Virus record (IMG/VR): IMGVR_UViG_2706794671_000003
DNA: 25,268 nt
DNA from: a virus
Lineage: Duplodnaviria; Heunggongvirae; Uroviricota; Caudoviricetes
Strand: one strand, 5' to 3'
Shown: positions 1 through 3,000 of the stretch, piece after piece
Numbering within the stretch: position 1 is the first letter of the stretch
Layout of the letters: each line of letters starts with the position of its first letter
Program-made: the position numbers

Positions 1-3000
1 CCACGGGAATATCTGCGGCAGCGGGCTTGTAATGGGTTAAGTGATAACAGATGTCTGGAAATATAGGGGCAAATCCAATCGTCGCCGTATTCCCGTATTA
101 ACAGAGACCGTAGCCCGACGGGGAACTCCTTCTGCGCGAGTGTGCGGGAATAATCAAAAACGATGCACACCGGGGTTACCGGGTACACATATTTCATCAT
201 GCCAGCGAGTCCGGTTCTGGCACGGAAGAAACCGGACGTTATGATTTAGTGCGGAAATATTTGTGTAGTGTTCTGTATGTTCTCAGTAAAGAGTAATGAA
301 TTATCAAAGGTATAGTAATACCTTTTGTTTTCGTGGATATTTGTAATCCATCTGAAAACCCCTGCTGTAGCAAGATTTTTCCTGTATTCGTAAAATGATA
401 ACTCTCCTGATTTGAATCCTTTTAAGGTGGCTTCTATAAGGCATTTATTTTTTGAAAATCTTACATTTACAACCTTACCCTGTCCTTTTATTAAAACCGT
501 ATTATCGTTTTCAAGAACAAGATGAATATTCTCTGTGGCTAAATAGTAAATGTAATGTGAGACATTGTGACGTTTTAGTTCAGAATAAAACCAGTGATAG
601 TTTAAATTATTTCGCACTTTATCGAATATTTGTTTAAAAATGGCAACCTGAGCCATTGTAGTACCTTCCATGTGATCTGAGGGGGCGTAGTCTGCACGAT
701 TATCTAAATTGCTTCAATCTGGTCTAACCTGTTTTCTGAGCAATTCAGTAATGTCACTCTTTTCTTTGTTTGCTTCAGGCGAAACTCTTTTTTCTGAGCA
801 CAGTCTCCGGCGGCAGGCTTCAATGACCCAGGCTGAGAAATTCCCGGACCCTTTTTGAACAAGAGCGATGTTAATTTGTTCAATCATTTGGTTAGGAAAG
901 CGGATGTTGCGGGTTGTTGTTCTGCGGGTTCTGTTCTTCGTTGACATGAGGTTGCCCTGTATTCAGTGTCGCTGATTTGTATTGTCTGAAGTTGTTTTTA
1001 CGTTAAGTTGATGCAGATCAATTAATACGATACCTGCGTCATAATTGATTATTTGACGTGGTTTGATGGCGTAGATGCACGTTGTGACATGTAGATGATA
1101 ATTATTATCATTTTGCGGGTCCTTTCCGGCGATCCGACAGGTTACGGGGCGGAAGGCGCGCGGGTTTTCGCTATTTATGACAATTTTCCGGTTTAAGGCG
1201 TTTCCGTTCTTCTTCGCCGTAACCTAATGTTTTTATTTAAAACACCCCCTGAAAAGAAAGGAAACGACAGGTGCTGAAAACGGGCTTTTTGGCCTCTGTC
1301 GTTTCCTTTCTCTGTTTTTGTCCGTGGAATGAACAATGGAAGTCAACAAAAAGCAGCTGGCTGACATTTTCGGTGCGAGTATCCGTACCATTCAGAACTG
1401 GCAGGAACAGGGAATGCCCGTTCTGCGAGGCGGTGGCAAGGGTAATGAGGTGCTTTATGACTCTGCCGCCGTTATAAGATGGTATGCCGAAAGGGATGCT
1501 GAAATTGAGAACGAAAAGCTGCGCCGGGAAGTTGAAGAACTGCGGCAGGCCAGCGAGACAGATCTCCAGCCAGGGACTATTGAGTACGAACGCCATCGAC
1601 TTACGCGTGCGCAGGCCGACGCACAGGAGCTGAAAAATGCCAGAGACTCCGCTGAAGTGGTGGAAACCGCATTCTGTACTTTCGTGCTGTCGCGGATCGC
1701 AGGTGAAATTGCCAGTATTCTCGACGGGATCCCCCTGTCGGTGCAGCGGCGTTTTCCGGAACTGGAAAACCGACATGTTGATTTCCTGAAACGGGATATC
1801 ATCAAAGCCATGAACAAAGCAGCCGCGCTGGATGAACTGATACCGGGGTTGCTGAGTGAATATATCGAACAGTCAGGTTAACAGGCTGCGGCATTTTGTC
1901 CGCGCCGGGCTTCGCTCACTGTTCAGGCCGGAGCCACAGACCGCCGTTGAATGGGCGGATGCTAATTACTATCTCCCGAAAGAATCCGCATACCAGGAAG
2001 GGCGCTGGGAAACACTGCCCTTTCAGCGGGCCATCATGAATGCGATGGGCAGCGACTACATCCGTGAGGTGAATGTGGTGAAGTCTGCCCGTGTCGGTTA
2101 TTCCAAAATGCTGCTGGGTGTTTATGCCTACTTTATAGAGCATAAGCAGCGCAACACACTTATCTGGTTGCCGACGGATGGTGATGCCGAGAACTTTATG
2201 AAAACCCACGTTGAGCCGACCATCCGCGATATTCCGTCGCTGCTGGCGCTGGCTCCGTGGTATGGCAAAAAGCACCGGGATAACACGCTCACTATGAAGC
2301 GTTTTTCCAATGGTCGTGGCTTCTGGTGCCTGGGCGGTAAAGCGGCAAAAAACTACCGTGAAAAGTCGGTGGATGTGGCGGGTTATGATGAACTTGCTGC
2401 CTTTGATGAGGATATTGAACAGGAAGGCTCTCCGACGTTCCTTGGCGACAAACGTATTGAAGGCTCGGTCTGGCCAAAGTCCATCCGTGGCTCCACGCCC
2501 AAAGTGAGAGGCACCTGCCAGATTGAGCGTGCAGCCAGTGAATCCCCGCATTTTATGCGTTTTCATGTTGCCTGCCCGCACTGCGGGGAGGAGCAGTATC
2601 TTAAATTTGGCGACAAAGAGACGCCGTTTGGCCTCAAATGGACGCCGGATGACCCCTCCAGCGTGTTTTATCTCTGCGAGCATAATGCCTGCGTCATCCG
2701 CCAGCAGGAGCTGGACTTTACTGATGCCCGTTATATCTGCGAAAAGACCGGGATCTGGACCCGTGATGGCATTCTCTGGTTTTCGTCATCCGGTGAAGAG
2801 ATTGAGCCACCTGACAGTGTGACCTTTCACATCTGGACAGCGTACAGCCCGTTCACCACCTGGGTGCAGATTGTCAAAGACTGGATGAAAACGAAAGGGG
2901 ATACGGGAAAACGTAAAACCTTCGTAAACACCACGCTCGGTGAGACGTGGGAGGCGAAAATTGGCGAACGTCCGGATGCTGAAGTGATGGCAGAGCGGAA

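Follow-up and report, generated by a model that had tools for sequence, protein, structure and literature searches.

The ylcI and DUF1398 genes beside cos in a lambda-like Escherichia coli prophage are probably two separable units

Introduction

The locus described here is already known: in Escherichia coli K-12 it has been annotated for years as ynfO-ydfO in the Qin prophage and as ylcI-ybcV in DLP12, and it is also present in phage lambda. We analysed the copy found at positions 246-947 of the IMG/VR virus record IMGVR_UViG_2706794671_000003 (25,268 nucleotides (nt); this whole stretch is referred to as the window), which consists of a small gene of the YlcI/YnfO family (DUF3950) and a gene of the DUF1398 family. 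The window represents the junction of the right and left arms in a lambda-like E. coli prophage, with the Nu1 gene starting at position 1336 and followed by the gene of the large terminase subunit. An initial annotation of this DNA, based on the sequence alone, had taken the two genes for an AT-rich accessory cassette that resembles toxin-antitoxin or small exclusion modules.

The closest described system is ynfO-ydfO of Qin, which has the same layout, i.e. nohA (the Nu1 gene) with cos, a divergent ynfO and then, after a gap of some 57 nt, ydfO in the orientation of ynfO. The identity with the respective window proteins is 97% for YnfO and about 76% for YdfO (75.6% by tblastn), and a box for the host regulator PdhR and a Fur site stand at the same positions. 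On the other hand, the entire locus is about 88% identical to the window at the nucleotide level, and the DUF1398 protein of the window is a distinct allele that many other prophages share with 100% identity. The structural region of the window is apparently that of a complete lambdoid phage, and Qin is a decayed prophage. The second described system is ylcI-ybcW-ybcV of lambda and DLP12. Here both families occupy the same slot between bor and cos, and the similarity of the proteins is high (95% identity in the YlcI core, 76-78% in DUF1398). Unlike in the window, there is an insertion on the opposite strand that carries ybcW, the homologue of lambdap79, and the tail of YlcI is replaced.

In the literature that we searched, no function or phenotype is reported for ylcI/ynfO or ydfO/ybcV, and there is no ribosome-profiling or small-protein evidence for ylcI/ynfO. 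The available data concern expression and dispensability. The ydfO gene is up 116-fold by quantitative PCR with the imidazolium ionic liquid [C2mim]Cl (PMC4077768), and it is differentially expressed upon DicC induction. The lambda homologue of the DUF1398 gene, lambdap78, is non-essential, as the efficiency of plating is about 1.9 under CRISPR interference (PMC10695390), and a Keio ybcV::kan strain is in use. Two kinds of published statements were set aside. Firstly, the claim that over-expression of YdfO leads to oxidative-stress resistance (PMC4077768) is a mix-up of names, the cited paper (PMC3105296) being concerned with YfdO of CPS-53. Secondly, the ylcI mutations mentioned in two resequencing papers come without functional information and may be mapping effects between paralogues.

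Results and Discussion

Gene content and base composition

Our comparison suggests that the locus is probably made of two separable units, a backbone gene of the ribbon-helix-helix type, ylcI, which stays with cos, and an independent DUF1398 moron. Both open reading frames (ORFs) are real genes. ORF calls confirmed the two minus-strand ORFs of the initial annotation (246-671, 141 amino acids (aa), and 714-947, 77 aa, 42 nt apart), and their position beside cos was also given correctly, as the cosN site (1147-1158) and the start of ylcI are separated by about 200 nt. The ylcI gene (714-947, minus strand, 77 aa) matches the Pfam family DUF3950 (PF13132; E 2e-20, 72.8 bits vs. a cut-off of 25) and the NCBIfam model YlcI_YnfO_N (NF041551; 35.2 vs. 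30). On the minus strand it can be divided into a conserved, basic core that encodes residues 1-50 (798-947) and a C-terminal tail (714-797) that differs among relatives. The DUF1398 gene, of the YdfO/YbcV/lambdap78 type, is placed by us at 246-656 of the minus strand (136 aa), because RefSeq uses the start at ATG 654-656 for the Qin copy as well as for a strain with 99.8% identity. A Shine-Dalgarno-like GGAAGG (664-669, minus strand) stands 7 nt 5' of this ATG, whereas the alternative in-frame ATG at 669-671, which gives the 141-aa form of 246-671 on the same strand, has no such element. Depending on the start, the gap between the two genes is 42 nt (141 aa) or 57 nt (136 aa). In comparison with the Qin copy, the substitutions in the DUF1398 gene are distributed as 21/14/44 over codon positions 1/2/3, i.e. 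with an excess at the third position.

The 702-nt interval 246-947 is the stretch of lowest GC content in the entire window (0.1 percentile). However, the AT-rich cassette of the initial annotation is not homogeneous. The GC content is 31.4-31.7% in the DUF1398 gene, 36.9% in the ylcI tail and 48.7% in the ylcI core, as compared to 55.6% in the remaining window. The AT-richness thus marks the DUF1398 gene and the junction (31.7 and 36.9%) and not the conserved ylcI core, whose composition is ordinary. The same boundary appears if the locus is viewed as an accessory (moron) cassette. A composition unlike that of the flanking phage genes is found in the DUF1398 gene and in the ylcI tail, but not in the ylcI core, and presence or absence among otherwise collinear relatives is seen in the form of three layouts between cos and bor/iss. 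The moron character therefore holds for the downstream gene, which has the lowest GC content, a variable presence and a non-essential homologue in lambda, and it does not hold for the upstream gene, the core of which looks like phage backbone.

As a side note on the record itself, the window contains four runs of N (3140-3389, 17926-18221, 21887-22153 and 24690-24939; 1063 bases in total), the first of which is inside the large terminase gene.

Distribution and alternative layouts

The 801-nt locus is matched in 3802 of the 5426 complete E. coli genomes (about 70%). Reading from cos to the next leftward gene, we find ylcI followed by DUF1398 in the window and in Qin; ylcI, the opposite-strand ybcW and ybcV in DLP12 and lambda; and, in two prophages, ylcI followed directly by iss/bor without a DUF1398 gene. 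The ybcW insertion is about 610 bp long in lambda and DLP12 and takes the place of window positions 735-784, i.e. of the YlcI tail; the ybcW/lambdap79 slot itself is at 4381-4587 in the fetched locus L052 and at 1439-1645 in L220 (lambda). Whatever stands downstream, the ylcI core always accompanies cos and Nu1 in Escherichia. The DUF1398 family, in turn, has a solo member in K-12, ycgX, which lies beside bluR without a ylcI-like neighbour and is present in nearly all E. coli. Among the same 5426 genomes, the ylcI core is found in 4184, a full-length prophage-type DUF1398 in 3011 and any DUF1398 in 5376. A scan of viral contigs with the DUF1398 alignment gave identical copies only, in 454 contigs. 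Distant DUF3950 genes of viral contigs are located in P4-like elements of the int-alpA-primase type and in Firmicutes-type phages; neither DUF1398 nor Nu1 was found near the distant DUF3950 genes of these two groups or of Rouxiella and Tatumella chromosomes. In these elements, which are P4-like or of the phage-inducible chromosomal island (PICI) type with integrase, AlpA and primase (L140-L172), the DUF3950 relatives are on the strand opposite to a long ORF.

These data are at variance with the proposal of a toxin-antitoxin or two-gene exclusion module. In its explicit form, the proposal is that of a type II system in which the DUF1398 protein is the toxin and YlcI, as a ribbon-helix-helix protein, acts both as antitoxin and as autorepressor. 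There are undeniable likenesses to ParDE, CcdAB and RelBE: the gene of a small, ribbon-helix-helix-like DNA binder comes first, a gene for a second small protein of about 140 aa follows on the same strand after 42-57 nt, and the order is kept in Qin and in many prophages. On the other hand, the strict linkage of such pairs is missing, since ylcI occurs without DUF1398 in the iss/bor layout, ycgX occurs without ylcI in nearly all E. coli, the three genome counts given above differ, and the distant DUF3950 proteins are never found beside DUF1398.

Some database hits were rejected as evidence of natural distribution. Matches in Streptomyces, Pseudomonas, Cohnella, Flavobacterium, Staphylococcus aureus and a spider come from many unrelated assemblies with contigs of either about 3.5 or about 48.4 kb that carry ylcI/ybcV of lambda (L010-L050; L018, for instance, is CP136411.1 with 3566 bp); one of these is labelled as "Arcanobacterium hippocoleae plasmid unnamed1". 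The most likely source of these contigs is the lambda control DNA supplied with sequencing kits, and they have given rise to error-ridden protein variants in the databases (P0027, P0059, P0082). A decayed locus is found in E. coli ECGI0523 (L042, 3962-4660), where both ylcI and DUF1398 carry stops and frameshifts and the adjoining Nu1 is 71% identical. In lambda itself (J02459) there is an intact ORF for a YlcI of 64 aa (complement 48109..48303; 1810-2004 in L220) in a record that annotates nothing after Rz; the ORF of HK629 (2765-2929 in L001) is likewise intact and unannotated in the record examined, and the YlcI ORF is absent from the lambda gene list of the CRISPR interference essentiality table.

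Control region of the DUF1398 gene

An alignment of lambda, DLP12, Qin and the window shows that the sequence is conserved from the motif ATCTGGTCTAACCTGTT to the start codon of the DUF1398 gene and is divergent upstream of this motif. The conserved upstream module (657-734, minus strand) travels with the DUF1398 gene, even though it overlaps the last codons of ylcI. In addition to the Shine-Dalgarno-like element it contains, on the same strand, a promoter-like site found in a promoter scan, TAGACC-16-GATAAT (726 to 699). The motif itself, a 17-mer at 717-733 of the minus strand, overlaps the first hexamer of this site and is a putative PdhR box by homology to the K-12 site. Its pattern is unique in the window, with 0 occurrences expected by chance. 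In K-12, a PdhR site has been reported between ybcV and ybcW and in ynfO>ydfO, and the ybcV mRNA falls 10-fold in a pdhR mutant (PMC7660256). Given the conserved promoter-like site and the PdhR box, we conclude that the DUF1398 gene probably has a control module of its own inside the 3' end of ylcI.

The structure of this region adds further arguments against a toxin and its antitoxin. The genes of such systems form a single operon; here a promoter-like site and a PdhR box stand in the region of the 42-57-nt gap, which is also wider than in the known systems, and the two partners are kept apart in lambda and DLP12 by a gene of the opposite strand. Nor do the two proteins co-vary: the tail of YlcI is unrelated between window/Qin and lambda/DLP12, and still the DUF1398 proteins are 76-78% identical, although the exchanged tail is the very region where ribbon-helix-helix antitoxins bind the toxin. 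Finally, neither Pfam nor PADLOC assigns DUF1398 to a toxin family, and YdfO was made without YnfO in amounts sufficient for nuclear magnetic resonance (NMR), as can be inferred from the existence of structure 2HH8. The proposal thus fails on linkage, operon structure, co-variation of the tail and toxin family, has no PADLOC match, and can be considered highly improbable.

The YlcI protein and the cos region

YlcI belongs to a small family, with 185 representatives among 1.84 billion. The first 50 residues are near-invariant in Escherichia and markedly basic (10 K/R vs. 2 D/E). Within the conserved NFS motif (N36-F37-S38), close relatives show no variation at any of the three residues, and at F37 the distant ones show none either. 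Relatives with 48-57% identity stand alone among ordinary metabolic genes in the chromosomes of Rouxiella and Tatumella, and this occurrence in unrelated contexts indicates that selection acts on the YlcI protein itself. A diverse alignment has the form T-x-K/R-N-I-R-F-P, helix, loop, N-F-S-A-W-V-I-E-A-C, where the length variation is located in the loop between the helices. The AlphaFold2 model of the monomer (pLDDT 68.6) is disordered at residues 1-18, followed by helices at 19-32 and 34-54; it should be noted that ribbon-helix-helix proteins acquire their strand only upon dimerisation.

Several observations point to the ribbon-helix-helix fold. The elements N-I-R-F-P ... G-x-x-N-F-S-A-W are in register with N-L-R-W-P ... 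G-R-S-V-N-S of Arc (hhalign E 0.0025, probability 12%). In a profile search of the PDB, two of the four weak matches are ribbon-helix-helix proteins (9kkd, CopG family, E 0.14; 6sbw, CdbA, E 0.46), and RHH_6 is the only recurrent additional Pfam family among YlcI members (E 0.011 and 0.092, on 2 of 22). Like the Arc and Mnt repressors of P22, YlcI is small and phage-encoded, with a basic N-[IL]-R-[FW]-P strand motif, two predicted helices and, where helix 2 begins, a G-x-S/N-x-N/F-S turn. Unlike the genes of these repressors, ylcI adjoins cos and not the immunity region, and the protein has no significant sequence match to them. An Arc/Mnt-like fold of the YlcI core is thus likely, but unproven.

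If so, YlcI would most likely bind DNA as a dimer, and its most probable target would be the promoter region for its own leftward transcription, located between the gene and cos, which would amount to autoregulation. A repeat search of this region revealed an inverted repeat, ATCAATTAATACG-N7-CGTCATAATTGAT (1017-1049, with 13-nt arms), 70-100 nt upstream of the ylcI start. We speculate that it might be the YlcI operator. The divergent ylcI/Nu1 intergenic region also contains a Fur-box-like palindrome (1094-1115), 233 nt upstream of Nu1, with 3 mismatches to the 19-nt Fur consensus and 0 expected by chance. It overlaps a promoter-like site of the plus strand that was found in the promoter scan (1084-1111). 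In Qin, a Fur site of nohA at the same position (-233) has been verified by gel shift, and that of nohB in DLP12 is predicted (PMC2189734). An effect of this site on the two genes studied here is only conjectural.

The neighbourhood of cos allows for a different interpretation, in which YlcI is a DNA-binding accessory protein of cos and terminase, active in packaging or in the control of the Nu1-side promoter, and not a moron regulator. The constant association of the ylcI core with cos and Nu1 in Escherichia would fit this idea. The same is true of one database protein (P0373), a distant member in which DUF3950 and a small-terminase domain (Terminase_2, E 1.6e-11) are either fused or run together, and of the fact that YlcI/YnfO is listed for PICIs which form capsids and possess a terminase of their own (PMC13612085). 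On the other hand, ylcI is read away from Nu1, in the antisense direction with respect to late transcription, the homologues in the Tatumella and Rouxiella chromosomes have no phage genes around them, and the P4-like relatives are located between alpA and primase and not at the terminase. Packaging at lambda cos, as classically described, is not known to involve proteins other than Nu1, A, IHF and FI. On balance we consider a role in packaging or Nu1 control unlikely.

With respect to cos itself, window positions 78-1146 align with the right end of lambda (J02459), and the alignment stops exactly at the terminal CCGACAGGTTACG. The cohesive-end position is therefore 1147-1158, where GGGCGGAAGGCG directly follows on the plus strand. 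The cohesive end differs from that of lambda, GGGCGGCGACCT, in 5 of 12 bases; the lambda 12-mer is found in 121 fetched loci, the variant of the window in six only (the window, L093, L098, L099, L101 and L124). Between cos and the Nu1 start there is a hairpin with 26-nt arms (1255-1311, 85% complementary). An Rfam search over positions 1-2000 gave nothing real, the sole matches being spurious hits of microRNA models to this hairpin.

The DUF1398 protein

In the initial annotation the downstream product was described as a 141-aa protein without recognisable motif, which is wrong. An HMM search assigns it to DUF1398 (PF07166; E 3.3e-43, 147 bits vs. a cut-off of 22), with residues 13-131 covering positions 1-119 of the 119-position profile, and the structure of a close homologue, YdfO, has been solved by NMR (2HH8; phmmer E 1.4e-69 over residues 1-140). 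There is no transmembrane segment or signal-like stretch in the protein (maximum KD19 0.39). No toxin or defence family of Pfam or PADLOC-DB v2 matches either of the two proteins; in PADLOC-DB v2 the best hit of DUF1398 is Csx23 (E 0.025), and YlcI has none. The Csx23 hit and a Pfam hit to HEPN_AbiA_CTD (E 0.014) both miss the cut-off and were rejected, and so was the Rx4H-like "RHNVSH" as an HEPN Rx4-6H motif, as it is not conserved in YcgX or in other alleles. An internal duplication suspected by eye proved not significant (z 0.8).

Database labels would make the DUF1398 protein a component of the virion or the envelope: PHROG 413 is labelled as "head protein", and the records of lambda, HK629 and DE3 read "putative envelope protein" or "head protein". 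These labels have no experimental source. A structural role is difficult to reconcile with the lack of a signal peptide or membrane segment, with a gene on the strand opposite to the late operon that is non-essential in lambda under CRISPR interference and missing from layouts of related functional prophages, and with the fact that YdfO was solved as a soluble, monomeric NMR target. We regard this assignment as effectively refuted.

The bor/iss and lom morons are a further described parallel. The DUF1398 gene shares with them non-essentiality (as judged from the lambda homologue), a strand opposite to or independent of late transcription, foreign composition, variable presence and a location at module junctions. 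The products are different, since Bor and Lom are outer-membrane proteins with serum-resistance or adhesion phenotypes, while the DUF1398 protein is predicted to be soluble and cytoplasmic. One may ask whether such a protein, alone or together with host factors, is expressed by the lysogen as a superinfection-exclusion, anti-phage or counter-defence factor. Its gene occupies a moron slot next to bor/iss, has a direction of transcription opposite to that of the late operon and shows foreign composition; it is widespread in prophages, as the 454 viral contigs indicate, and dispensable in lambda. A further argument comes from its slot neighbour: lambdap79, the YbcW homologue, activates the Vulcan NADase defence, and lambda escapers of Vulcan lose lambdap79 by recombination with Qin (bioRxiv 10.64898/2026.09.04.749371). 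Since lambdap79/YbcW triggers Vulcan, the locus takes part in the interplay of phage and defence. Against a defence role of DUF1398 itself, there is no PADLOC model that fits, the HEPN_AbiA similarity and its Rx4-6H motif do not hold across paralogues, ycgX, the paralogue on the chromosome, is fixed in E. coli and stands outside of active prophages, and no phenotype is reported in the literature searched. A defence factor thus seems a rather unlikely explanation; what we infer from the data at hand is that DUF1398 has a role in the physiology of the host rather than one in killing or in packaging.

Two probable units beside cos

We return to the two separable units. The first one would comprise the ylcI core (798-947) and the intergenic region up to cos, i.e. 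a gene of the phage backbone that stays linked to cos and Nu1. The second one (246-734) would be a classical AT-rich DUF1398 moron with its own promoter-like element and a box for the host regulator PdhR. Its product would be a soluble cytoplasmic protein that, judging from the lambda homologue, is dispensable for lytic growth, and its gene would be transcribed against the late operon, from the prophage and under host control. Both units would be neighbours in a non-essential part of a lambdoid prophage, namely the stretch that extends from the lysis genes to cos.

There are a few points that weigh against this division and against the functions attached to it. Firstly, the block of homology with a phage whose Nu1 is of a different type also covers cosN, so that the control region of ylcI could not be separated from cos; this would also agree with a cos-associated YlcI. 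Secondly, the promoter scan found no sigma-70-like promoter for ylcI on the minus strand, and there is no terminator-like site after either gene on that strand; as the two genes are 42-57 nt apart on the same strand, co-transcription by read-through is possible. Thirdly, YlcI has no significant match to any ribbon-helix-helix family in profile and hhalign comparisons (E-values above 0.001 apart from one pairwise hhalign value of 12% probability), a Foldseek search of the PDB with the 77-aa model gave no hits, and no shared repeat or operator was found upstream of the distant YlcI homologues. The ribbon-helix-helix pattern seen in the initial annotation is thus borne out by weak profile matches and secondary structure, but not by a family assignment. 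Finally, the predicted model of the DUF1398 protein (pLDDT 51.6) is too poor for the identification of fold neighbours, so its activity is a guess.

A bolder interpretation would join the two genes in one scheme. YlcI would be an overlooked Arc-like repressor at the cos-proximal edge of the slot that gates leftward transcription into the cargo of the slot (DUF1398, ybcW/lambdap79, bor/iss), and DUF1398 would be an effector, expressed in the lysogen, that modifies susceptibility towards other phages or towards the defence systems of the host. We consider this scheme quite improbable. Recombination between lambda and Qin that deletes lambdap79 leads to a ybcW-less layout as in the window; if the joint scheme were true, the layout of the window would be the natural counterpart of the laboratory genotype that escapes Vulcan.

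For the annotation of lambdoid phages, these results mean that the toxin-antitoxin or exclusion guess can be dropped on comparative grounds, and that the labels "head protein" and "envelope protein" of DUF1398 in phage records are unsupported. We point to ylcI and the DUF1398 gene as they are among the last function-less genes of the lambda region, and as they adjoin lambdap79, which has recently been shown to be a trigger of defence.

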